Of a DNA stretch of 64,000 nucleotides, positions 27,760 to 64,000 are shown piece after piece. The notes under the pieces are model-generated. The model saw only the letters and a list, made by a program, of their open reading frames with translations. It made no database searches and was not told where the DNA came from. The translations under genes were made by a program, and so were the position numbers. Positions within the stretch are counted from its first letter, which is position 1. Each line of letters begins with the position of its first letter. The DNA is from Escherichia coli (GTDB taxonomy: Bacteria > Pseudomonadota > Gammaproteobacteria > Enterobacterales > Enterobacteriaceae): the NCBI RefSeq assembly GCF_003334255.1, contig NZ_QOWU01000022.1; one strand, 5' to 3'.

Positions 27760-28039
27760 TACCGTTGTCTCTCGTCCAGGTTTACTCCTGATAGAAAGTC
27801 ATCGGCATTTGACGGTAATTACTTACGACTAAAAGCCTCTTTGCGTCACATTTTTACAACAATTATTGCAGAGAAGATTAATGCTATTGGAATGAAGAGA
27901 GTAACGAATGGCTAAACCGAATGACGAAAAATTCTGGAAAACAGCACGCAATTTCGTGAAGTGATTATTTCGTCCCTAAGGAAACCTCATAGGATGCCTG
28001 CGGGTGCCTGAGACTTTCTGTTTTCAGGCTAACCGGGAA

Positions 28040-28089
28040 TCAGAAAGACGAAGGCCCAGACCGATATTTCTATCAACCGAGGCCAACGA

Positions 28090-28105
<16 letters not shown>
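28040..28105 (-). ncRNA. sokB: Putative SokB antisense RNA (position approximate)
   Basis: Inferred only from hok/sok architecture (antisense to the mokB start region); not delimited from sequence signals. Confidence 0.3.
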
Positions 28106-28297
<192 letters not shown>

Positions 28298-28542: not shown

Positions 28543-28786
28543 ATAACCTCCATGGTTTATCGAATCTTATGTTCGATTTGAACGTTATACGCTGGTTTAT
28601 TTTGATACCGTTGATGAGATCAAAGATCGGGTGAATTGATTAAAAATAAGGCAGATGGACGTATGGGCAAGGATTATGGTTTTATTTGTCATACAAATAA
28701 ATATAATAGGCGCTTCCGATGTAGACCCGTATTCTTCGCCTGTACCACGGGTCGGTTTTAGTACAGGCGTTTTCTTTAAATATCCT

Positions 28787-38015: not shown

Positions 38016-40986
<2,971 letters not shown>

Positions 40987-44594: not shown

Positions 44595-47500
44595 TTAGAA
44601 CGTTTTCTTAAAGTTCAGCATCACGCCTTTATCGCTGATACCGTCCTCTTTCCAGTGGTACGCGTCCAGATTCAGCGAACTTTCTTTGCTGCTGTACTTC
44701 ACGCCGACGCTTGCCAGGCTATTGATGCCGCCGCCCTTCTGATCGTCATCGACGTTAAAGTGCTGGCTGCCTGCGCCTGCCAGGCTTGCCGTGCGCTGGC
44801 TCTTCGCGTAGCTCAGGTTCGGCCCGCCTTCCAGCGTGGCGTTCGCACTCCAGCCGTCTTTTCCTGCATAATCCAGCTTCAGCCCGACGATGCTGTCCAC
44901 CGCCGTTTCGCTGCCGCTGTTCATGCTCAGGTTAAAGTCTCCGGCATTGCGCTCCTGATAGCCACCTTCCAGTGTGTGACGCAGTTTTACACCCGCATAT
45001 GGCGTAACCTTCAGTCCTTCGCTCGGTTCGAAAGTCTTCGCTCCTTCGCTACGGAACTCCAGGTACTGCTGCTTCACGTCGGTATCAGCCGTTTTGTTCG
45101 TGTTGCTAAATGCAATCGAGCGGCTGCTGTCAAGGTTGTGAACGTCATAACGCAATGCGTTATTCCAGTTCATGCCGTTGTCGAAGGACATCTGATGTTT
45201 CAGGCCAAAGAACTGGCTGTAGCCACCGGTGACGCCATTATCACCCGCTTTCTGCGCACCGTCGCCATCCAGACGCGCGATACCGTACTCCAGACTCATG
45301 GTCTGGCTTTCGCTCAGGTCGATGGTTTTACGCAATGCCAGCATGTCGTATTCGGTATTATTACCTAACTCGGCACGCGGATCGCCTTTCGCGACAACGT
45401 TGAACGCCAGACCGTTGCCCACTTTCGGCGCGGCATCCGCCAGCATACTAAAGCGGTTGCTTAACACGCGCGCTTCGCGGAATACCGTGGTTGCCTGGCT
45501 ACCGCTGACCTGTTTCAGAGCGCTGTTCAGTTCAGCAGTCGTGCCGACGTTCAGGCTGGTAAACAGTTCGTTGTTGGTGTAACTCGCATCCAGTGCTTTC
45601 GCGATGTCATTCACCGAAGCATCAGTCGCCACATCGGTATAAGCATTTTTGCTCATGGTGATGTCAACGTTACCGCTGGCATCGGTGCTGCCTTTAGCAG
45701 TCCATACCACGGACGTTGAGGTGATGGCATCCGCATCGGTCAGGTTGCTGCCCTCCACCACGTTATCAAAACTAACGGTGGTGTCTGCGGTACCGGCGGT
45801 AAACCCGGTGTTGATCCCCACGCCGTTCATGCTGGCATTGTTGACCTTGAGCTTACCGGCGCTGCCATCGGCACTCGTTCCCACCACGTAACCGTTGAGA
45901 TTATTCATGCCGTCGTCACTGCTCACGGACGATGACGAGCTACCGCCGCTATAAGGCGTAATCGTCGGCTCATCCGGCGCGGTGAAGTCCACATAGTGCG
46001 CTTCTGTGCCGTCGCCGCCTTCGCCGTTGCCTTCTGCCGAGATACCACTTTGTTTGAAGATACCGGAACCCGTCACGCTGTCGTCGATATACACGATACC
46101 GTTGTTAACGATATGTCCAGCGCTGCCTAACTGGCTGAATGCAAAAGAATCACTGGCGTAAATATTGATGGTGCCATTATTTTCAATGACCGCATCCGCC
46201 TTCGCGTTGCTTTCGAGTTGCATCCCTACCATGCCAGTCTCAGAGGTGCCTTCTGTGCCGACGTTAATGATATTGTTGTTGACCATTTTCGCGCTGCCAT
46301 GCGCCGACATCGCCACATTACCAGTGTTGTCAATATTAATAGTACCGTCGTTCACCACCAGCGTGTTAGCGTTCACGTTCAAGGCAGTCTTGATTTGACC
46401 GTTGATTACGCCCGTCTCACCGTTATAAAGGGTGTGTGGATTGCCAGCGGCCATAATATTAGCGTCACTGTTAACCGTGCCCCAGTTATTAAATGAACCC
46501 GCCCACAATTGACCGTCATCAATTGTTGCTACACCGCCTTGCAGGTTGTTGAATACACCCTTTTTATCCACGGTGACATGATTGACCGTTCCGGCGTTAT
46601 TGAACGTTGATGCAGCAGTAAAAAAGACCTTATCTACCGTTCCACCTGCCTGGTTGTTCATGACGGCAGACACCGATGAGCCTTTCCAGTTGCTCACCGT
46701 TCCGGTGTTATAAACAGCGCTGGCCCACTGTTCGATACTACTAATAGTGCCAGCATTGTTGATGACCGAACCCGCAACTGTCGTAACTACCTGGCCTGTA
46801 ACTGTGCCTTCATTATTAAAGACGCCGCCATCAACAGAAACGGATTGAGTTATCCCCTGGTTGATATATTCACCGTCAATGGCGATAACCACCTTGTTGA
46901 TATTACCCGTGATTTCGTTGGTCAGATTGCCATTATGAGCAACCGTAATGGCTCCGCCCGTCACCGTTCCTGCGTTGGTGATATAAATATCGCTCTCTGC
47001 CAGGGGGTTGGTTACCCCTCCGCTTGTGGGTAAATCCAGCGTTTCGCCTTCAGCGGTAATAACGTTGCCATTATCCCATCCCCGGCTGACGGCACTGTCG
47101 GTCGGGTTATAGCTCGCACTGTCCTGACAAATACCGAACGTGCAGATAGTGCCGTAGTTAACAATAACGCCGGAACCGTCATTGTAAAATGCCTGACCAA
47201 TTTCGGCATTAATATTAATAACGCCAGTCTGATCATTAATTGCGGTTCCGCCATTGTAAACCGCCATACCGACGAGTTTATTCGCGCCAATCGTGTCGTC
47301 ATAGTTATCATTTTTTTCCAGGTTGATAGTCCCCTGGTTAATGACCGTATTGCCATGACCATTAGCGAACATTCCCGCGCCGGCATTATAGATAGTAATG
47401 ACACCGCCTTCTTTATTAATTGCGGTTGCGTTAACTCTGGGGCCGTTAAAATCATCTGTGCCTACCCACATGCCAGCGGCATAATCTCCGGCTCTATTTC

Positions 47501-50300
47501 CATGTATATCGCTGCGTAATTGCGTTGTATCATTAGCATCAACCCATAACGCATCGATAGAGATATTGCCTGCATTCTCAGCCGTCGAGTTGTCTATTGC
47601 CGTCATGCCAATGTTCCCTCGACCATACATATCAATCACGCCACTCTCACCATTGAGTGCATAACTGTTATGGTAGGCTTCGAGAGCAATCATACTCTCC
47701 GTTTGATTATTCGGAATATCACTGCCAGTAGCACCCACGGAGTTTCGCATATTCACCACGCTATACTGCTCCATAACTTTTGCTGTGATGAATCCATTAT
47801 TTGTAACCGTAGCGCCTCCTTGCGCCATTAGCGCTACCCCACCCGGTTCCGGGACTGGATTTGTCGGTGTCGAATAATCATACTGAAGTAATGCGATGCT
47901 GCCGCTGTTAACCGCCGAACTGTTTTCATCGTTGACATTAATAAATTTAATATTCGCTACATCGACATCCCCTTCATTGATGACCTGGGAACCGGAAGAC
48001 GCATTTATTATCGCAGGAGTCGCATCAAAATAGTGTTCGAATATATTGACATCCTTCGTTGAAAAAGAGGCATCATCGCCTATCTTCAACATTGCACCAT
48101 CATTCAACTGGATAATACTGGAGTAACCTACCGGGAAATCACCGCCTATTACCGAGTCACCATTCAGGTATACGGATGAGTTGCCATCAACCTTAATAAG
48201 AGGAGTGGAGCCGCTTCCCTTACGTGCGGAGGCAATATCCTCTCCGTTGGTTAAGGTATTTGCCTCTCCCCTGAATTGCACGCCACCATTAAGTGCTACC
48301 GTATTACCATCACCCGTGATCACCAGTCCGGAGATGTTTTCCTGGCTACCGTCAAAACGTGCATAGGTACGATTCGTGGTTTCGCTATCCACGACCATCG
48401 TTAACTGACCATCCAGTGTAATATCATTATTATCACCGCTGACATTAACGCCAACGGATGGGTCGTAAAAATATTCTGCCGCATTATCAGCCAACTGGTT
48501 TTTATCGACCAGTATATTGCCGGCGATATCGATGGTATTCCCGTTCCCGGCGACATTGACCCCTGTCGCATCCTGTCCGGTGACGTTCAGCTCATAGGTG
48601 GCCAGCGTCATAGTGTTATTATTGCCAACCACATCCAGACCTGTGGAGAAATCACCCACATACATACCACCCGCAAGTGAGATATCGCCAGCGTCGCCAA
48701 TAACCTGAACTCCCGTCCCTGCATTGCTGGCAGAAATATCACCCACGTTCATAAACGTGGCGTTATCCCCCGCAATCTTCACACCTGTGGCATTCTCTTC
48801 CGCATTGCCATTGCTGGCGGAAATATCACCCATATTGATAAATGTGGTGTCATTACCCTGCAACTCAATGCCAATGGATTTCTCATCCACGACGGTTATA
48901 TTGCCTTTATTGCTGATAATGGTGCCATCTCCATCAACAATAATTCCACGTGCGCCACCGCTTACATAAAGATCGCCTGATTGTTTAACCAGTGCATCGT
49001 TACCGGTAATTTTCGACCCCGTCGAATGTTCTCCGTCGACGGTCATGACACCTTTATTACTTACTACCGCGTTGTCGCCATTAATCTCGCTGCCGGTCCC
49101 ACCATTGGTAAACGTCGAGTCACCCGCGGTATTCAATGTCGCGCGATCGCCATTGATAATAACCGCCGTCCCGCCATCAACTTCCGTTTCACCATTATTA
49201 TTGATGGTGATATCGTCGCCGGTCAGGATACCGACCACTGAGCCTTCGCCAATTGCGGTGGTTTTACCGTCGTTATTAAGGGTTATATCGTGACCGTCAA
49301 CAACCATCACCGTGCCACCATTCAGCGCGGTATTTCCACCCTTATCGGTGATGGTGGCATCGTTAACCTGGAAATGGTCACCTGTAGTTCCATCAGCAAC
49401 CGTACCCGCCTCTTTGACAATATGGATTTTGCCATCGTCATCATAACGCCAGGTGATCCCGCCCGCCGTATTGACGCCGTCAAAGCTGACAGTGTTGGCC
49501 GCCTCGTCAACGGACCAGGTTTTTACAATCGTCGTTTTGCCATTTGGCCCGGTAAGTGTGTAACTGCCGTCTTCATTTTTAGCGTAGGTGAAGGTGGTAT
49601 TACGAATTTCTACGGTCTTCGCATCCTGATCCCAGGTGACATTATTTTTATAAACGACAGGATCGTGTTTGACTGGGGTGTCATCACCATCGTCGTCCGG
49701 GGTATCGTCACCATCATCGTCCGGTGGTACCGGGGTGTCACCGCCATCGTCCGGTGGTACCGGGGTGTCGCCGCCATCGTCCGGTGGGACCGGGGTGTCG
49801 CCGCCATCGTCCGGTGGTACCGGGGTGTCACCGCCATCGTCCGGTGGCACCGGGGTGTCGCCGCCATCGTCCGGTGGGACTGGTGTGTCGCCACCATCGT
49901 CCGGTGGGACTGGTGTGTCGTCGCCATCATCCGGCGGTACCGGGGTGTCGCCGCCATCGTCCGGCGGTACTGGTGTGTTGCCGCCATCGTCCGGCACCGG
50001 AGATGGATCGTCGTGATGGTGATTATTATCATCGTGGAGTGCATACACCGCTACGCCTGTTGCCACCGCAGCCAGGCCCACTGCAGCCCAGGGTAACAAC
50101 TCACTATCTTCAGCTGATTTACACTCTGCTGGCAGCTTTTCTAACTGTTCTTTACTCAGTGATTTAATATTGACCGGGCAGCTAATCTTGCTGGATTTAC
50201 GAGACTCATCCGATGTTTCCGCTATCGACGTATCTGCTGCCCAGGTCTGGCTGCTTAACGCCATTGCAACACAGACACTAAGCATTTTTTTCCTTTGCAT
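44595..50300 (-). CDS. ydbA: Giant autotransporter adhesin-like protein YdbA, uninterrupted
   Basis: Single 1901-aa ORF: signal peptide, Pro/Asp-rich decapeptide repeats, long Gly/Asn/Thr-rich passenger, C-terminal beta-barrel ending ...LNFKKTF. Confidence 0.85.
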   Translation of the reverse strand: MQRKKMLSVCVAMALSSQTWAADTSIAETSDESRKSSKISCPVNIKSLSKEQLEKLPAECKSAEDSELLPWAAVGLAAVATGVAVYALHDDNNHHHDDPSPVPDDGGNTPVPPDDGGDTPVPPDDGDDTPVPPDDGGDTPVPPDDGGDTPVPPDDGGDTPVPPDDGGDTPVPPDDGGDTPVPPDDGGDTPVPPDDDGDDTPDDDGDDTPVKHDPVVYKNNVTWDQDAKTVEIRNTTFTYAKNEDGSYTLTGPNGKTTIVKTWSVDEAANTVSFDGVNTAGGITWRYDDDGKIHIVKEAGTVADGTTGDHFQVNDATITDKGGNTALNGGTVMVVDGHDITLNNDGKTTAIGEGSVVGILTGDDITINNNGETEVDGGTAVIINGDRATLNTAGDSTFTNGGTGSEINGDNAVVSNKGVMTVDGEHSTGSKITGNDALVKQSGDLYVSGGARGIIVDGDGTIISNKGNITVVDEKSIGIELQGNDTTFINMGDISASNGNAEENATGVKIAGDNATFMNVGDISASNAGTGVQVIGDAGDISLAGGMYVGDFSTGLDVVGNNNTMTLATYELNVTGQDATGVNVAGNGNTIDIAGNILVDKNQLADNAAEYFYDPSVGVNVSGDNNDITLDGQLTMVVDSETTNRTYARFDGSQENISGLVITGDGNTVALNGGVQFRGEANTLTNGEDIASARKGSGSTPLIKVDGNSSVYLNGDSVIGGDFPVGYSSIIQLNDGAMLKIGDDASFSTKDVNIFEHYFDATPAIINASSGSQVINEGDVDVANIKFINVNDENSSAVNSGSIALLQYDYSTPTNPVPEPGGVALMAQGGATVTNNGFITAKVMEQYSVVNMRNSVGATGSDIPNNQTESMIALEAYHNSYALNGESGVIDMYGRGNIGMTAIDNSTAENAGNISIDALWVDANDTTQLRSDIHGNRAGDYAAGMWVGTDDFNGPRVNATAINKEGGVITIYNAGAGMFANGHGNTVINQGTINLEKNDNYDDTIGANKLVGMAVYNGGTAINDQTGVININAEIGQAFYNDGSGVIVNYGTICTFGICQDSASYNPTDSAVSRGWDNGNVITAEGETLDLPTSGGVTNPLAESDIYITNAGTVTGGAITVAHNGNLTNEITGNINKVVIAIDGEYINQGITQSVSVDGGVFNNEGTVTGQVVTTVAGSVINNAGTISSIEQWASAVYNTGTVSNWKGSSVSAVMNNQAGGTVDKVFFTAASTFNNAGTVNHVTVDKKGVFNNLQGGVATIDDGQLWAGSFNNWGTVNSDANIMAAGNPHTLYNGETGVINGQIKTALNVNANTLVVNDGTINIDNTGNVAMSAHGSAKMVNNNIINVGTEGTSETGMVGMQLESNAKADAVIENNGTINIYASDSFAFSQLGSAGHIVNNGIVYIDDSVTGSGIFKQSGISAEGNGEGGDGTEAHYVDFTAPDEPTITPYSGGSSSSSVSSDDGMNNLNGYVVGTSADGSAGKLKVNNASMNGVGINTGFTAGTADTTVSFDNVVEGSNLTDADAITSTSVVWTAKGSTDASGNVDITMSKNAYTDVATDASVNDIAKALDASYTNNELFTSLNVGTTAELNSALKQVSGSQATTVFREARVLSNRFSMLADAAPKVGNGLAFNVVAKGDPRAELGNNTEYDMLALRKTIDLSESQTMSLEYGIARLDGDGAQKAGDNGVTGGYSQFFGLKHQMSFDNGMNWNNALRYDVHNLDSSRSIAFSNTNKTADTDVKQQYLEFRSEGAKTFEPSEGLKVTPYAGVKLRHTLEGGYQERNAGDFNLSMNSGSETAVDSIVGLKLDYAGKDGWSANATLEGGPNLSYAKSQRTASLAGAGSQHFNVDDDQKGGGINSLASVGVKYSSKESSLNLDAYHWKEDGISDKGVMLNFKKTF
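49670..50000. repeat. Tandem 30-nt coding repeat array (about 10 copies) inside ydbA
   Basis: Repeated ggtgtcaccgccatcgtccggtggtaccgg units encoding (T)PVPPDDGGD. Confidence 0.85.
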
Positions 50301-50701
50301 ATGAAATTCCTCATAAATAGATGATTACGCAGCCCAGATAAACTGCACAGGGTTAAATAGTTACAAACATTCGAAATCTGGATATTGTTTTTAACAGAAT
50401 AAATATATTGATTTAGCGAATATATTTATTCATTAAGTCAATATATTTATTCTTTAATTTATATTTTTAACGCATTTATTTCAACATAAAATATGGCGTA
50501 GTTGAGATTAAATCCGATAATACCTATGAATTAAATAATACAAGTAATTCATGTGGTAAATAAATCATCATGTTAATGAAGCATTTCTTATCGGCATCTA
50601 TATGAAATTAAATAAAAAATAATTCTCAATAGTATTACAGTTATTATTGAATGTTTCAGGAGGTACAACCAGACAGATTTTTCTCGACGAATACCGAATT
50701 A

Positions 50702-51025
50702 TTATTTTTGCAACCACATCCCGTTTATCCCGCGAATGTATTCTCCCGGCTTAGCTTTTGCTACCAGTTTCTGCCCAGCCAATTTTTCCACTTCTGCAAC
50801 CGGCAAATTATTTTTTATGGCGAGTTTTTGATAGCTCTTTTTACGCGATTCATTAATCGTTTTGACTAACATCTGTGTTTCGGTATCCGCCTTTAATGCA
50901 ACCAGATAACCATTATACGTTTCGCCAACACGCCCCTGAGTTCGAGCGTCATCCAGCGTCAGCGCCATCGCACTGGCGTTAAATAATGCATTAATGACAA
51001 AACACAGCATTAAATTTCTCTTCAT
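50702..51025 (-). CDS. ydbL: DUF1318-family periplasmic protein YdbL
   Basis: ORF 50702..51106 trimmed to MKRNLMLCFVINALFNASAMA. Confidence 0.75.
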   Translation of the reverse strand: MKRNLMLCFVINALFNASAMALTLDDARTQGRVGETYNGYLVALKADTETQMLVKTINESRKKSYQKLAIKNNLPVAEVEKLAGQKLVAKAKPGEYIRGINGMWLQK

Positions 51026-56120: not shown

Positions 56121-59100
56121 ATGATTACTATTGATGGTAATGGCGCGGTTGCTTCGGTGGCGTTTCGCACCAGTGAAGTTATCGCCATCTACCCTATTAC
56201 CCCCAGTTCCACGATGGCAGAACAGGCTGATGCCTGGGCCGGAAACGGCTTGAAGAACGTTTGGGGAGACACACCACGCGTGGTTGAAATGCAGTCGGAA
56301 GCGGGTGCTATCGCTACCGTGCATGGCGCTTTGCAGACGGGTGCCCTTTCAACATCGTTTACGTCATCGCAGGGTTTGCTGCTGATGATCCCGACGCTAT
56401 ACAAACTGGCAGGCGAACTCACACCGTTTGTCCTGCATGTAGCGGCACGTACCGTTGCCACACATGCACTTTCTATTTTTGGCGATCATTCCGACGTTAT
56501 GGCGGTGCGCCAGACGGGTTGCGCGATGTTGTGTGCGGCTAACGTCCAGGAAGCGCAAGACTTTGCTCTCATTTCGCACATCGCGACGCTGAAAAGCCGC
56601 GTGCCATTTATTCATTTCTTTGATGGTTTCCGTACGTCCCACGAAATCAATAAAATTGTCCCGCTGGCCGATGACACTATTCTTGATCTCATGCCGCAGG
56701 CCGAAATTGATGCTCATCGCGCCCGGGCGCTCAACCCGGAACATCCGGTGATCCGCGGTACGTCCGCCAATCCTGACACTTATTTCCAGTCTCGCGAAGC
56801 CACCAACCCATGGTACAACGCAGTCTATGACCATGTTGAACAGGCGATGAATGATTTCTCTGCCGCGACAGGTCGTCAGTATCAGCCGTTTGAATATTAC
56901 GGGCATCCGCAAGCGGAACGGGTGATTATCCTGATGGGCTCTGCCATTGGCACCTGCGAAGAAGTGGTTGATGAATTGCTAACCCGTGGCGAAAAAGTCG
57001 GCGTGCTGAAAGTTCGCCTGTACCGCCCCTTCTCCGCTAAACATTTACTGCAAGCTCTGCCGGGATCCGTACGCAGCGTGGCGGTACTGGACAGAACCAA
57101 AGAACCCGGTGCCCAGGCAGAACCGCTCTATCTGGATGTAATGACCGCACTGGCAGAAGCCTTTAATAATGGCGAGCGCGAAACTCTGCCCCGTGTCATT
57201 GGTGGGCGCTATGGTCTTTCATCCAAAGAATTTGGCCCAGACTGTGTACTGGCGGTATTTGCCGAGCTCAACGCGGCTAAACCGAAAGCGCGCTTTACGG
57301 TTGGTATTTACGATGATGTAACCAATCTGTCCCTGCCGTTGCCGGAAAACACCCTGCCAAACTCGGCGAAACTTGAAGCCTTGTTTTATGGCCTTGGTAG
57401 TGATGGCAGCGTGTCCGCGACCAAAAACAATATCAAGATTATCGGTAATTCCACGCCGTGGTACGCACAGGGCTATTTTGTTTACGACTCCAAAAAAGCG
57501 GGCGGCCTGACGGTTTCTCACCTTCGCGTGAGCGAACAGCCGATTCGTTCCGCTTATCTCATTTCCCAGGCTGATTTTGTTGGCTGCCACCAGTTGCAGT
57601 TTATCGATAAATATCAGATGGCTGAGCGTTTAAAACCTGGCGGCATTTTCCTGCTCAACACGCCGTACAGCGCAGATGAAGTGTGGTCGCGCTTGCCGCA
57701 GGAAGTTCAGGCCGTGCTAAACCAGAAAAAAGCGCGCTTCTATGTGATTAACGCAGCGAAAATCGCCCGCGAATGTGGCCTGGCGGCCCGTATTAATACC
57801 GTCATGCAGATGGCTTTTTTCCATCTGACGCAAATTCTGCCTGGCAATAGCGCCCTCGCAGAATTGCAGGGTGTGATTGCCAAAAGTTACAGTAGCAAAG
57901 GTCAGGATCTGGTGGAGCGCAACTGGCAGGCTCTGGCGCTGGCGCGTGAATCCGTAGAAGAAGTTCCGTTGCAACCGGTAAATCCGCACAGCGCCAATCG
58001 ACCGCCAGTGGTTTCCGATGCCGCCCCTGATTTCGTGAAAACCGTAACCGCGGCGATGCTCGCCGGGCTTGGTGATGCCCTCCCCGTTTCGGCGCTGCCG
58101 CCAGACGGCACCTGGCCGATGGGCACTACGCGCTGGGAAAAACGCAATATCGCCGAAGAGATCCCCATCTGGAAAGAGGAACTCTGTACCCAATGTAACC
58201 ACTGCGTTGCCGCTTGCCCACACTCAGCTATTCGCGCAAAAGTGGTGCCACCCGAAGCGATGGAAAACGCCCCTGCCAGCCTGCATTCGCTGGATGTGAA
58301 ATCGCGTGATATGCGCGGGCAGAAATATGTCTTACAGGTAGCTCCGGAAGATTGCACCGGTTGTAACCTGTGCGTCGAAGTTTGCCCGGCGAAAGACCGT
58401 CAGAATCCAGAGATTAAAGCCATCAATATGATGTCGCGCCTGGAACATGTCGAAGAAGAGAAAATCAATTACGATTTCTTCCTCAACCTGCCAGAAATCG
58501 ACCGTAGCAAACTGGAACGTATTGATATTCGTACATCGCAGCTGATTACACCGCTGTTTGAATATTCAGGTGCTTGCTCCGGTTGTGGCGAGACGCCGTA
58601 TATTAAATTGCTGACTCAGCTCTATGGCGACCGGATGTTGATCGCTAACGCCACCGGCTGTTCTTCAATTTATGGCGGTAACCTGCCCTCTACACCGTAT
58701 ACCACCGATGCCAACGGTCGTGGGCCGGCATGGGCGAACTCTCTATTTGAAGATAATGCCGAATTTGGCCTTGGTTTCCGCCTGACGGTCGATCAACACC
58801 GTGTCCGCGTGCTGCGTCTGCTGGATCAATTTGCCGATAAAATCCCGGCGGAATTACTGACTGCGTTGAAATCAGACGCCACGCCAGAGGTTCGTCGTGA
58901 ACAGGTTGCAGCTTTACGCCAGCAACTCAACGACGTTGCCGAAGCACATGAACTGCTACGTGATGCAGATGCACTGGTGGAAAAATCAATCTGGCTGATT
59001 GGTGGTGATGGCTGGGCTTACGATATCGGCTTTGGCGGTCTGGATCATGTATTGAGTTTGACGGAAAACGTCAACATTCTGGTGCTGGATACGCAATGCT

Positions 59101-59645
59101 ATTCCAACACCGGTGGTCAGGCGTCGAAAGCGACACCGCTGGGTGCAGTAACTAAGTTCGGCGAGCACGGCAAACGTAAAGCGCGTAAAGATCTTGGCGT
59201 CAGTATGATGATGTACGGTCATGTTTATGTGGCGCAGATTTCTCTCGGCGCGCAGCTCAACCAGACGGTGAAAGCGATTCAGGAAGCGGAAGCGTATCCG
59301 GGGCCATCGCTGATCATCGCTTATAGCCCATGTGAAGAGCATGGTTACGATCTGGCACTCAGCCACGACCAGATGCGCCAACTCACAGCTACCGGCTTCT
59401 GGCCGCTATATCGCTTCGATCCGCGTCGTGCCGATGAAGGCAAACTGCCGCTGGCGCTGGATTCACGCCCGCCGTCAGAAGCACTGGAAGAAACGTTACT
59501 TCACGAGCAACGTTTCCGTCGTCTGAATTCGCAGCAGCCAGAAGTGGCAGAACAGTTATGGAAAGATGCTGCAGCTGATTTGCAAAAACGCTATGACTTC
59601 CTGGCACAAATGGCCGGAAAAGCGGAAAAAAGCAACACCGATTAA
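56121..59645 (+). CDS. ydbK: Pyruvate:flavodoxin/ferredoxin oxidoreductase
   Basis: 1174-aa ORF with two ferredoxin-type 4Fe-4S cysteine clusters (CTQCNHCVAACP, CTGCNLCVEVCP). Confidence 0.9.
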   Translation: MITIDGNGAVASVAFRTSEVIAIYPITPSSTMAEQADAWAGNGLKNVWGDTPRVVEMQSEAGAIATVHGALQTGALSTSFTSSQGLLLMIPTLYKLAGELTPFVLHVAARTVATHALSIFGDHSDVMAVRQTGCAMLCAANVQEAQDFALISHIATLKSRVPFIHFFDGFRTSHEINKIVPLADDTILDLMPQAEIDAHRARALNPEHPVIRGTSANPDTYFQSREATNPWYNAVYDHVEQAMNDFSAATGRQYQPFEYYGHPQAERVIILMGSAIGTCEEVVDELLTRGEKVGVLKVRLYRPFSAKHLLQALPGSVRSVAVLDRTKEPGAQAEPLYLDVMTALAEAFNNGERETLPRVIGGRYGLSSKEFGPDCVLAVFAELNAAKPKARFTVGIYDDVTNLSLPLPENTLPNSAKLEALFYGLGSDGSVSATKNNIKIIGNSTPWYAQGYFVYDSKKAGGLTVSHLRVSEQPIRSAYLISQADFVGCHQLQFIDKYQMAERLKPGGIFLLNTPYSADEVWSRLPQEVQAVLNQKKARFYVINAAKIARECGLAARINTVMQMAFFHLTQILPGNSALAELQGVIAKSYSSKGQDLVERNWQALALARESVEEVPLQPVNPHSANRPPVVSDAAPDFVKTVTAAMLAGLGDALPVSALPPDGTWPMGTTRWEKRNIAEEIPIWKEELCTQCNHCVAACPHSAIRAKVVPPEAMENAPASLHSLDVKSRDMRGQKYVLQVAPEDCTGCNLCVEVCPAKDRQNPEIKAINMMSRLEHVEEEKINYDFFLNLPEIDRSKLERIDIRTSQLITPLFEYSGACSGCGETPYIKLLTQLYGDRMLIANATGCSSIYGGNLPSTPYTTDANGRGPAWANSLFEDNAEFGLGFRLTVDQHRVRVLRLLDQFADKIPAELLTALKSDATPEVRREQVAALRQQLNDVAEAHELLRDADALVEKSIWLIGGDGWAYDIGFGGLDHVLSLTENVNILVLDTQCYSNTGGQASKATPLGAVTKFGEHGKRKARKDLGVSMMMYGHVYVAQISLGAQLNQTVKAIQEAEAYPGPSLIIAYSPCEEHGYDLALSHDQMRQLTATGFWPLYRFDPRRADEGKLPLALDSRPPSEALEETLLHEQRFRRLNSQQPEVAEQLWKDAAADLQKRYDFLAQMAGKAEKSNTD

Positions 59646-59672
59646 ATGCTCTGGATAAGGATTATCCAATTC

Positions 59673-59784
59673 TAAAAAAAAAGCCCGGACGACTGTTCGG
59701 GCTTGTCTTTTTATATGTTGGAAAATCAGTGGCAATGCAATGGCCCAACAGAAAATAAAATCTGTGACAATAAAGGCATATAAC
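59673..59784 (-). ncRNA. micC: MicC small regulatory RNA
   Basis: Reverse complement of 59761-59784 is GTTATATGCCTTTATTGTCACAGA; ends in hairpin gcccgaacagtcgtccgggc plus U-run; sits between ydbK and ompN. Confidence 0.85.
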
Positions 59785-60011
59785 CCGCGCAGAATAACGT
59801 ATAGAAAATTAAAAGTATAATTTTTATTTTGTATGTATTATCTTCGATACATTCACCAGACTTATTATCATTTCAGAAGAATTATTTGATTAAGGTTTTA
59901 CTTAAGGCGTAACAAATGATATTTATCGGCTAACTGAACTTCTCCTTTAGGATGTTTTCACTCCCCGAAATGGGGATAAAAGGCAAATAAAATAACTAAA
60001 GGATTTATTCA

Positions 60012-61145
60012 ATGAAAAGCAAAGTACTGGCACTTTTAATTCCTGCCCTGCTCGCCGCAGGTGCTGCACATGCAGCCGAAGTTTATAATAAAGACGGCAA
60101 CAAATTAGATCTGTATGGCAAAGTTGATGGCCTGCATTATTTTTCTGATAATTCAGCGAAAGATGGCGACCAGAGCTATGCGCGTCTGGGTTTTAAAGGC
60201 GAAACCCAAATTAACGATCAACTCACTGGCTACGGTCAATGGGAATACAATATTCAGGCAAACAACACTGAATCTTCAAAAAACCAGTCATGGACCCGTC
60301 TGGCATTTGCCGGACTGAAATTTGCAGATTACGGTTCTTTCGATTACGGACGTAATTATGGCGTAATGTACGACATCGAAGGCTGGACCGATATGCTGCC
60401 TGAATTTGGCGGTGACTCTTATACCAATGCAGACAACTTTATGACTGGTCGAGCCAATGGCGTCGCGACTTATCGTAATACTGATTTCTTCGGTCTGGTA
60501 AATGGTCTGAACTTCGCGGTGCAGTATCAAGGTAACAACGAAGGAGCCAGTAATGGTCAGGAAGGCACCAACAACGGACGTGATGTTCGTCATGAAAACG
60601 GTGACGGCTGGGGTCTTTCCACAACATATGATTTAGGCATGGGCTTTAGCGCTGGTGCGGCATACACCTCTTCTGACCGCACCAATGACCAGGTTAACCA
60701 TACTGCGGCGGGTGGTGATAAAGCAGACGCGTGGACTGCTGGGCTAAAATACGATGCTAACAATATTTACCTGGCAACCATGTATTCAGAAACGCGTAAT
60801 ATGACCCCGTTTGGCGACAGCGATTATGCTGTTGCAAACAAAACCCAGAACTTTGAAGTCACTGCACAGTACCAGTTTGATTTTGGTCTGCGTCCGGCAG
60901 TCTCTTTCCTGATGTCTAAAGGCCGTGACCTGCACGCTGCCGGTGGTGCAGACAACCCGGCAGGTGTTGATGATAAAGATCTGGTTAAATACGCCGATGT
61001 TGGCGCGACTTACTATTTCAATAAAAACATGTCCACTTATGTTGACTATAAAATCAACCTGTTGGATGAAGATGACAGTTTCTACGCTGCCAACGGCATC
61101 TCTACCGATGATATTGTCGCTTTAGGTCTGGTTTATCAGTTCTAA
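60012..61145 (+). CDS. ompN: Outer membrane porin N
   Basis: 377-aa general-porin ORF with signal peptide and C-terminal ...LVYQF. Confidence 0.9.
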
Positions 61146-61152
61146 ATCCTCC

Positions 61153-61178
61153 TGCCCGCTGTTATGGCGGGCTTTTTC
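61153..61178 (+). terminator. Rho-independent terminator of ompN
   Basis: gcccgc-tgttatg-gcgggc followed by ttttt. Confidence 0.75.
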
Positions 61179-61204
61179 TGCTTATTCTTCCTCCTTTGAT
61201 CTAA

Positions 61205-61720
<516 letters not shown>

Positions 61721-61726
61721 CACTAA

Positions 61727-61753
61727 CGCCCGCACATTGCTGCGGGCTTTTTG
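61727..61753 (+). terminator. Rho-independent terminator of uspF
   Basis: gcccgca-cattgc-tgcgggc followed by ttttt. Confidence 0.75.
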
Positions 61754-61895
61754 ATTCATTTCGCAAATGTGCTGACATTTTCCCCTCTAATCCGTACCAT
61801 ACACACCACTGTTTTTATTTCAGATTTCTTATGCTGGGCATTCCGGCATGACGCATACTCTTCTGATGCCATATAACGAATTGAGTCGCTTTTAA

Positions 61896-61949
61896 ATGTC
61901 GCAAAATCAAGAAATTAGTAAGAAAGAACAATACAACCTGAACAAGTAA
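61896..61949 (+). pseudogene. ttcC: 17-codon 5' fragment of ttcA (ttcC-like integration-site remnant)
   Basis: Own translation: MSQNQEISKKEQYNLNK then stop; resembles the recalled TtcA N-terminus MQENQQITKKEQYNLNK. Confidence 0.6.
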
Positions 61950-62399
61950 GGGCAAAGATCATAATCATCTGGCGTATAATTATTTTATTTAGTTTTAATA
62001 AATTAAGGCACGTCAGCAGCTACGATGAGCAATAATAACCCACTTTCTTTTTGTCCCATTTTTGCCACAATCAAATAGCCTGAAACCTAGGATAACCGCC
62101 ATTAAACAATAACTAGACCAGCAGACATGCCACTACCGGCACCGTAAAATCCATCAGGCTTGCCACATCCCACGCATGTGGTTCAAAACCGCCTCACCAC
62201 GGCATATTCATACGCTTGCTTGATATGTTCGGTTCCCCAAAAATAAATGGTAACACTACTACAGACTGCTCTTGAAGCACTGAAAGAGCAATACAAACTG
62301 ATTGGACATCATCGCAAAAGCGAAATCACCTTTTATCATCGGGAGGACGGCAGAACCGAAAAGCAAAAACTGCATTTTTCTTGCCCAAGATGTGTAACG

Positions 62400-62666
62400 G
62401 AAAACAGAAACCTTTATTAGTCGGTAAGCAGTTTGGGTGCGAGATGGAATGCAACAGTAATACGTGCTGGTATTCGCCGCCGTAATCCGTACCATACGCA
62501 ACATACTTTTGCCTGCTTACTGTTGACGATTTGAGCGAACCCGGCATTTATATTCAGCCAGACGGGGGATGAAACTGCGCAGATGGTGTATGAAGTGTAT
62601 GCTAATTGGATAGAAAACATGAACAATGAACAAATAGATTTTTTGAACAGAAAGCTATCATCGTGA
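62400..62666 (+). pseudogene. Decayed 3' end of a tyrosine recombinase (integrase) gene
   Basis: Own translation: ...IRAGIRRRNPYHTQHTFACLLLTI*, then in another frame ANPAFIFSQTGDETAQMVYEVYANWIENMNNEQ; no intact N-terminal region. Confidence 0.5.
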
Positions 62667-62751
62667 TGGCTCCTTAAAAAAGACTAAAAAACACCACGAA
62701 TATAGCGCATTACATATTAATGCAGGTGACGTAATGCCACCTACAATGATC

Positions 62752-64000
62752 TTAAGCATCACTCTTGTCTCGAGGTTCCTTTAGATTCAGAACTCGGATC
62801 AATCCATCATGTATTTTATATTCATCAGAATCAATAAACCCTTGTGAAGGGTAAAAACATTTATAACGCCAAATTGTAGACTGACCAACTTTAAACCCAA
62901 TCAATGATATATCGAACATAAAACGTATCTGTTCATTGATCAATTCAGTATTATAATTAGCATCTATTTTTTGCAATTCAGTAACCAGTTCATTCTTAGT
63001 AAAAATTGTAGATGAATGATTCTGTATAGCAGAAAGAAGTATTTTTATTTCAGGGCGCTGAACCGCCCATTCATCATTGATTTCCTGTTTTAACCACTCT
63101 GAGTAACTTGGCTCAGCCTGGTAAATATATTCAACCTCCAACTTATCACCAACAAAATCATTATCTGAGAACGGATCGTTTTTATCATCGCGCATGGAAC
63201 TAATTGTTTTAGTTAATAAACATATCATATCGCGAGGACGCATCATCGAGCGCTTCATCAGATAATTAAAAGGTTTTGCACGCTGCCGCATCTCATGACG
63301 GTCAAAAAGTTCATCAACATCATGAACTAGATCTTTATTTACATTGGCGGCATAATAATTTATTCTTTGGAGAAGCATCTTCATTAAAGTTTCTCTACTC
63401 CAATGAAGAAGAGCCCCGCAATCCTCTCGAAGTTTATTAGAGTCATTCAAGCTCAATACTTCGAATATATCTTCTCGCAGAAAAATCAAAGGTCTAATGT
63501 TACCATTATATTTTGGGGTTATGGCATCAGCAGCGGTGACTAACCCTGCTATAACCCTTCTCGATACATCGACTGAAATTTCATCCCATGCTTCGTCTAT
63601 ACGATCAAAACAAACAAAAACTTTTGCATGCATTGGTTGGCTACTTCGGAGACAATTTTCAAAGTAATCAATTAAATGATCAATATTATTACATAACTTA
63701 TCACGTAAGTCGGGATCATTCGAAGCGGATTCGAAATTTACTTCGCCTCCATCTAACTCAAGGGAATTCAAGTCACCGTCAGATAAATCCAAACCAGCTT
63801 TTGGCAAAGAAATTTTTCCTAAACCCAGTAACTTCCTCCCCACTAATACAGAAATAGAAGGGAATGGTGTATCAAAAATTTTCTCCAGTGCAACTTTAGC
63901 ATTTTTTAATGGTTTAGGTATTGGGTGATGCTGCCAACTTACTGATTTAGTGTATGATGGTGTTTTTGAGGTGCTCCAGTGGCTTCTGTTTCTATCAGCT
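62752..64000 (-). CDS. Uncharacterized protein, 5'-truncated by the window edge, in AT-rich accessory DNA
   Basis: ORF 62752..63843 stays open in frame to base 64000 (own translation of the upstream 157 nt); stop TAA at 62752-62754; AT-rich composition unlike flanking core genes; no confident family assignment. Confidence 0.6.
   Translation of the reverse strand, partial: ADRNRSHWSTSKTPSYTKSVSWQHHPIPKPLKNAKVALEKIFDTPFPSISVLVGRKLLGLGKISLPKAGLDLSDGDLNSLELDGGEVNFESASNDPDLRDKLCNNIDHLIDYFENCLRSSQPMHAKVFVCFDRIDEAWDEISVDVSRRVIAGLVTAADAITPKYNGNIRPLIFLREDIFEVLSLNDSNKLREDCGALLHWSRETLMKMLLQRINYYAANVNKDLVHDVDELFDRHEMRQRAKPFNYLMKRSMMRPRDMICLLTKTISSMRDDKNDPFSDNDFVGDKLEVEYIYQAEPSYSEWLKQEINDEWAVQRPEIKILLSAIQNHSSTIFTKNELVTELQKIDANYNTELINEQIRFMFDISLIGFKVGQSTIWRYKCFYPSQGFIDSDEYKIHDGLIRVLNLKEPRDKSDA

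Follow-up and report, generated by a model that had tools for sequence, protein, structure and literature searches.

The question raised by this locus is whether the spacer between ydbK and ompN (59646-60011) holds a gene, and which one. The window means here the whole stretch of 64,000 nucleotides of an Escherichia coli genome that was analysed (contig NZ_QOWU01000022.1). In the RefSeq/PGAP records of 30 sampled E. coli genomes no feature was found under the name micC, and set against those genomes it is only the curated K-12 MG1655 record that annotates the ncRNA, where the region reads ompN (minus strand), micC b4427 (1437121-1437231, plus strand) and ydbK (minus strand). The missing feature is a gap of annotation rather than of biology and, since most RefSeq E. 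coli records carry nothing at micC, recognising the gene keeps the spacer from being read as empty or new. What our own analysis shows is which gene this is, how it is built, its synteny and how far it is complementary to the ompC leader; expression, dependence on Hfq, translational repression of ompC, repression by H-NS and co-induction of micC and ompN are taken from the literature.

The earlier note on this DNA had placed a MicC sequence on the minus strand of the spacer, and this was borne out in two ways. The whole window was scanned against Rfam 15 at gathering thresholds, and one of the three matches in all was MicC (RF00121) at 59667-59787 on the minus strand with 125 bits (E 2.3e-19; curated gathering score 90), covering model positions 1-123 of 123 without truncation. 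Furthermore, alignment to the annotated gene, the check that the note had proposed, showed 59674-59784 (minus strand) to be identical in 111 of 111 nt to K-12 MG1655 micC (b4427, NC_000913.3 1437121-1437231), with no mismatch anywhere and so none in the 5' 22 nt that form the seed, the place where a mismatch would have refuted the note. Such a match to the family and to K-12 is far beyond chance. The length of 111 nt follows the K-12 RefSeq annotation (the literature gives 109 nt), and MicC is numbered here with +1 at 59784. The interval of 59650-60011 given earlier for the RNA does contain micC, but it is nearly the whole spacer; the RNA gene occupies 59674-59784 only, and the rest is the regulatory region shared by micC and ompN together with the ompN 5' UTR.

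Compared with the K-12 system (b4427; RF00121; Chen, Zhang, Blyn & Storz 2004), the window has the same RNA, neighbours, spacing, terminator and promoter blocks. When the reverse complement of 59640-60020 (the spacer plus some coding bases on either side) was set against K-12, 2 of 381 positions differed, both outside the RNA and outside the conserved promoter blocks: 59805 is T (G in K-12; -21 of micC) and 59878 is T (C in K-12; -94). These two changes would not be expected to have a functional effect. The 501 bases around the spacer have a match in 5413 of the 5426 complete E. coli genomes, at 100% in one of them (strain G1/2), and the 111 nt of micC are present at 95% identity or more in 4909 of 5426. 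Five of about 5460 matching places for the spacer in these genomes lie on plasmid-labelled records. Overall, we hold with a probability of about 97% that 59674-59784 on the minus strand is E. coli micC, with a putative promoter of its own, a rho-independent terminator and a seed that pairs with the ompC leader. Nothing was found that speaks against this identity. The gene at this place is already known, textbook biology, and nothing in it changes current knowledge.

In the work of Chen et al. 2004, as far as it is summarised in PMC5745476, MicC is an Hfq-associated RNA of ~109 nt that represses OmpC by pairing with the ompC 5' UTR, whereby binding of the 30S subunit is inhibited. The sequence of events at the present locus would be the same. 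Transcription of the gene would begin at a promoter of its own within the AT-rich spacer shared with ompN, lead away from ompN in the direction of the 3' end of ydbK/nifJ, and stop at the rho-independent terminator. The resulting Hfq-dependent RNA of ~110 nt would pair through its single-stranded 5' end (nt 1-22) with the ompC leader just upstream of the ribosome-binding site; this pairing would block 30S binding and lower the synthesis of OmpC.

The part of MicC that pairs with the ompC leader is the 5' seed, nt 1-22 (59763-59784, minus strand; GUUAUAUGCCUUUAUUGUCACA), which is identical to K-12. As ompC lies outside the window, the leader for the pairing was taken from K-12. Using RNAduplex, the first 30 nt of MicC and this leader gave -26.5 kcal/mol, with MicC nt 1-16 pairing contiguously with ompC -30 to -15, counted from the AUG, and nt 17-21 pairing further upstream in the leader, across an 11-nt bulge. 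Shuffled seeds gave -12.9 +/- 2.7 kcal/mol, and 0 of 2000 were as good. A run with full-length MicC returned an over-extended 104-nt duplex (-56.6 kcal/mol); this artefact was discarded because it ignores intramolecular structure, and the calculation was redone with the 30-nt 5' end. The ompC leader and start region (100 nt) is at least 99% identical in 5366 of the 5371 E. coli genomes having it, so there is hardly any doubt that the target site is the same in the source genome.

The most probable of the alternatives is a reading that accepts micC and holds the label "repressor of ompC" to be incomplete: the main role of MicC in natural isolates might lie with other targets. Candidates would be motility, chemotaxis or metabolic genes, or targets that, like Salmonella ompD, are bound in the coding sequence and cleaved by RNase E. 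In UTI89, deletion of micC gives phenotypes that are not fully explained by OmpC, together with broad transcriptional changes, and the same 2026 preprint describes OmpC-independent roles of MicC in the fitness of extraintestinal pathogenic E. coli (bioRxiv 10.64898/2026.07.27.741068). In the account of Pfeiffer et al. 2009 that PMC3333887 relays, Salmonella MicC silences ompD inside the coding sequence, where it pairs within codons 23-26 and recruits RNase E. A divergent E. coli allele that was found independently of any seed search (strain KKa019) has kept the seed unchanged as well; the invariance of the seed across genera proves nothing in this respect, because those loci were retrieved by a 21-nt seed pattern. 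Against this, nothing in the window bears on other targets, and ompC, the sole pairing computed, is strong. E. coli K-12 is not known to carry ompD. On balance we regard a mainly OmpC-independent role as possible, though we would not bet on it, and pairing with the ompC leader remains the function that we assign to this gene.

The neighbours of micC agree with those in K-12. On one side, the 1174-aa ORF at 56121-59645 (plus strand) encodes pyruvate:flavodoxin (ferredoxin) oxidoreductase (TIGR02176, 1630 bits, cut-off 911); it is annotated nifJ in the closest genome and ydbK in K-12, and it is convergent with micC. On the other side, the 377-aa ORF at 60012-61145 (plus strand) matches NF007841, an OmpC-subfamily porin model, with 594 bits and is ompN, the quiescent general porin, annotated as such in K-12 and in strain G1/2, with uspF next after it. 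The divergent orientation of micC and ompN described earlier was thus recovered from the ORFs, the profile matches and the annotation of the closest genome. From the micC +1 to the ompN ATG there are 227 bp, in the window as in K-12.

This arrangement is found well beyond E. coli. An exact search for the 21-nt seed in 100,044 species-representative genomes gave 30 loci, from Citrobacter, Salmonella, several Escherichia species, Superficieibacter, Pseudocitrobacter and two MAGs, which were examined by tblastn with the proteins of the window. ydbK is convergent with micC in 29 of them, and in the other locus (L013) the contig stops short of the ydbK position. Of the 26 loci that extend far enough upstream, 24 have an ompN-like porin gene divergent from micC, in several enterobacterial genera, which upholds the claim that the placement beside ompN is conserved. 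The two exceptions are Salmonella enterica subsp. diarizonae (L012, 8322-9098) and subsp. arizonae (L030, 3588-4364), where ompN is absent, micC and ~130 nt upstream of it are kept, and uspF follows directly, its start ~345 bp from the micC +1. Salmonella enterica MicC has the same 5' seed, the terminator and the position beside nifJ in common with the window. It differs in its central region and, in the two subspecies sampled, in the loss of the ompN that the window keeps.

The shared spacer has a GC content of 27-30%, against 50-58% in ydbK. This is consistent with the repression by H-NS reported for micC and ompN, both of which are poorly expressed in standard conditions; reporter fusions of the two are co-induced by beta-lactams, by depletion of sigma-E and in an hns mutant (PMC5745476). 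In addition, the expression of micC differs between ST131 and other clinical isolates without changes in the promoter (PMC7177473). A putative core promoter of micC was picked out by eye, from the position of +1 and the cross-genus alignment, at 59791-59819 (minus strand), with a -10 of TATTCT (59791-59796) and a -35 of TATACT (59814-59819) separated by 17 nt. Its hexamers are weak, and a consensus promoter scan did not flag it. In the cross-genus alignment TATTCTGCGCGG and ATTATAC are conserved at this place; within the 90 nt upstream of +1 the conserved blocks are TATTCT at -12 to -7, TATAC(T/A) at -35 to -30 and an A/T tract at -46 to -36, with GTGAATG near -70 and GATAAT near -80. The TATTCT and TATAC(T/A) blocks, whose distance from +1 is the right one, are likely to be the -10 and -35 of micC.

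For ompN, the only promoter-like site that the consensus scan reported upstream of the gene on the plus strand is TCGATA-16-TATCAT at 59844-59871 (9 of 12 matches), and the published start site is likewise a matter of prediction (PMC5745476). CATTC and the block aligned with this -10 are conserved in the spacer alignment (TTATCAT in the window, TATCAC or TATCAT in most other genera), and the conserved GATAAT block named above is, on the opposite strand, part of this TATCAT in the window. A small hairpin (CCCC-GAAAT-GGGG) was also noticed at 59963-59975 on the plus strand, in the presumed ompN 5' UTR ~40 nt before the ATG; at its position other genera have ACTCCCT..GGGTAGT or ACTTCCT..GGGAAGT, which by eye seem able to pair.

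A conspicuous element of the spacer is a 16-nt block at 59815-59830 (GTATAATTTTTATTTT in the plus-strand reading; -31 to -46 of micC), which overlaps the putative -35/UP region of micC. It is kept in nearly all of 24-27 aligned sequences, the Salmonella loci lacking ompN included, and hardly varies among Escherichia, Citrobacter, Salmonella, Superficieibacter and relatives. Candidates for its function would be an UP-element and -35 of micC or the site of a regulator. As the block contains a perfect TATAAT on the ompN strand (59816-59821), it might also form an overlapping core shared by two divergent promoters, or a single regulator site that couples transcription of micC and ompN. The Salmonella loci without ompN keep ~130 nt upstream of micC with the conserved blocks in it, which argues that the blocks serve micC. 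We consider a coupling through this block rather doubtful. If it were true, it would offer a mechanism for the co-induction of micC and ompN, which has been reported and is so far unexplained.

The RNA itself is built from three parts. Behind the seed, a central stem-loop occupies nt 35-69 (59716-59750, minus strand), in which UGUUGG (nt 35-40) and CCAACA (nt 64-69) form the stem of a variable loop, in agreement with the consensus stem of Rfam. In an alignment of 31 sequences, 5 of the 8 pairs of the central helix have changes on both sides and 84.6% of its cells are paired, while the loop differs freely among species and among E. coli alleles. The RNA ends in a rho-independent terminator (59674-59704), a GC-rich hairpin at nt 81-104 (59681-59704) followed by a nine-U tail. 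The hairpin is present in both the MFE and the centroid fold, and its stem is 99% paired in the 31 sequences, where it is invariant except for a covarying closing pair (CG, UA). For the named structure 92.6% of cells are paired, and sliding the partners by 1-3 columns lowers this share to 29-51%. The fold, the U tail and the alignment together vindicate the statement of the earlier note that MicC has its own terminator hairpin. In this class of sRNA the terminator and its U-tail are the Hfq-binding module.

A terminator scan reported this palindrome on the plus strand only (AAGCCCGGACGACTGTTCGGGCTT GTCTTTTTAT). With its A.C mismatch, the minus-strand stem has only 7 pairs left and encloses a loop of 10 nt, which the rules of the scan do not admit; on the plus strand A.C becomes G.T and the downstream GTCTTTTTAT is T-rich, and for this reason the hairpin was reported there alone. 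The silence of the scan on the MicC strand was overruled by the RNA fold and the alignment, which show the hairpin on that strand. The mismatch (GTCCGGGC; 59693, C on the minus strand, in the region of nt 92-93) is found in the terminator stem of the window and K-12, whereas 29 of the 31 aligned sequences, all other genera among them, have a perfect A-U pair there (GTTCGGGC). The palindrome starts 35 bases past the ydbK stop codon. With its terminator-like reading on the plus strand, it looks like a bidirectional terminator for the convergent ydbK and micC, and we infer that one terminator may be common to the two genes.

Within E. coli, ~9% of the complete genomes (497 in the band of 90-95% identity) have a divergent micC/ompN spacer. 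Such an allele was read from the RefSeq strain KKa019 (L035). Compared with 59640-60020 of the window, it has lost 5 nt from the MicC loop, which also carries several substitutions, and it differs between the two -35 elements, while the seed, the base of the stem and the terminator are unchanged. The alleles of E69 and SCPM-O-B-8794, which are representatives of "E. coli" in GTDB, gave nothing or only 87% matches by megablast against RefSeq complete genomes, a non-detection that holds at the sensitivity of megablast. Seed, stem and terminator that are kept while the loop drifts make up the pattern to be expected of a functional base-pairing sRNA, and not that of a coding sequence.

These results also bear on whether the MicC-like sequence could be a silent relic here, in a spacer that serves only as the ydbK terminator and the ompN promoter. 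The hairpin does read as a terminator for ydbK on the plus strand, the micC promoter hexamers are weak and escaped the scan, and both genes are reported to be H-NS-repressed, with low expression in standard conditions (PMC5745476). However, the RNA and the promoter blocks are identical to those of the K-12 gene, which is expressed and functional; the micC transcript is documented in K-12 (PMC5745476), and the upstream sequence of the window is as in K-12 apart from the two substitutions. Across genera the seed, terminator and central stem are kept, the last through compensatory changes, while the loop drifts. In the Salmonella subspecies that have lost ompN, micC is still present together with ~130 nt of its upstream sequence. 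We consider a relic highly improbable. Still less credible is a small protein encoded by the spacer, instead of or besides an RNA regulator: mechanically called ORFs of 26-59 aa do overlap it, but they have TTG or GTG starts or are antisense to the RNA, none is supported, the 5-nt loop indel between alleles breaks every frame that crosses it, the substitutions fit the RNA structure and the full-length Rfam structural match accounts for the conservation, so these ORFs were dismissed. No tRNA was found within 59000-64000. A genuine micC is the reading that we retain.

MicC has an analogue in MicF, which is likewise a porin-repressing, Hfq-dependent sRNA that is divergent from another porin gene and pairs near the ribosome-binding site of its target (PMC5745476). 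In K-12, micF lies 334 bp upstream of ompC, the porin gene from which it diverges. Unlike MicC, it has an unrelated sequence, a separate Rfam family, another locus and ompF as its target. The activators of MicF are known (OmpR and MarA/SoxS/Rob), whereas the regulators of micC are less well defined.

Several other observations were made in the window. Two further RNAs were matched on the plus strand, the sok antitoxin of a hokB/sokB type I toxin-antitoxin locus at 28002-28153 (Rfam, 101 bits against 59; the closest genome annotates hokB) and the sRNA RydC at 28713-28776 (92.5 bits against 48; cybB adjoins it in the closest genome). Compared with K-12, ~26.7 kb are absent, comprising feaR-feaB-tynA, the whole paa operon and the 5' part of ydbA disrupted by IS2/IS30; they are replaced by ~5 kb at 45910-50865, in which the closest genome annotates fragments of an autotransporter and of a BigA pseudogene. 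At ~40792-40800, ~1.6 kb are absent (the 3' end of ynbA, all of ynbB and the 5' end of ynbC). Beyond uspF, in the place that ttcC and the end of the Rac prophage occupy in K-12, 62752-63843 (minus strand) codes for a P-loop ATPase of the Sll1717 family (NF047389, 182 bits). Its product has weak matches to candidate anti-phage families (NF053860, 42 bits; PADLOC PDC-M28C, E 2.8e-8) and an integrase pseudogene adjoins its counterpart in the closest genome; the region may be a defence island or what is left of an integrated element.

For the window, the value of identifying micC is one of annotation only. In the biology of E. coli, MicC is part of the sRNA network that sets the porin composition of the outer membrane, and through it the permeability to beta-lactams and the tolerance of stress, and recent work has connected it with fitness in extraintestinal pathogenic E. 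coli (bioRxiv 10.64898/2026.07.27.741068).
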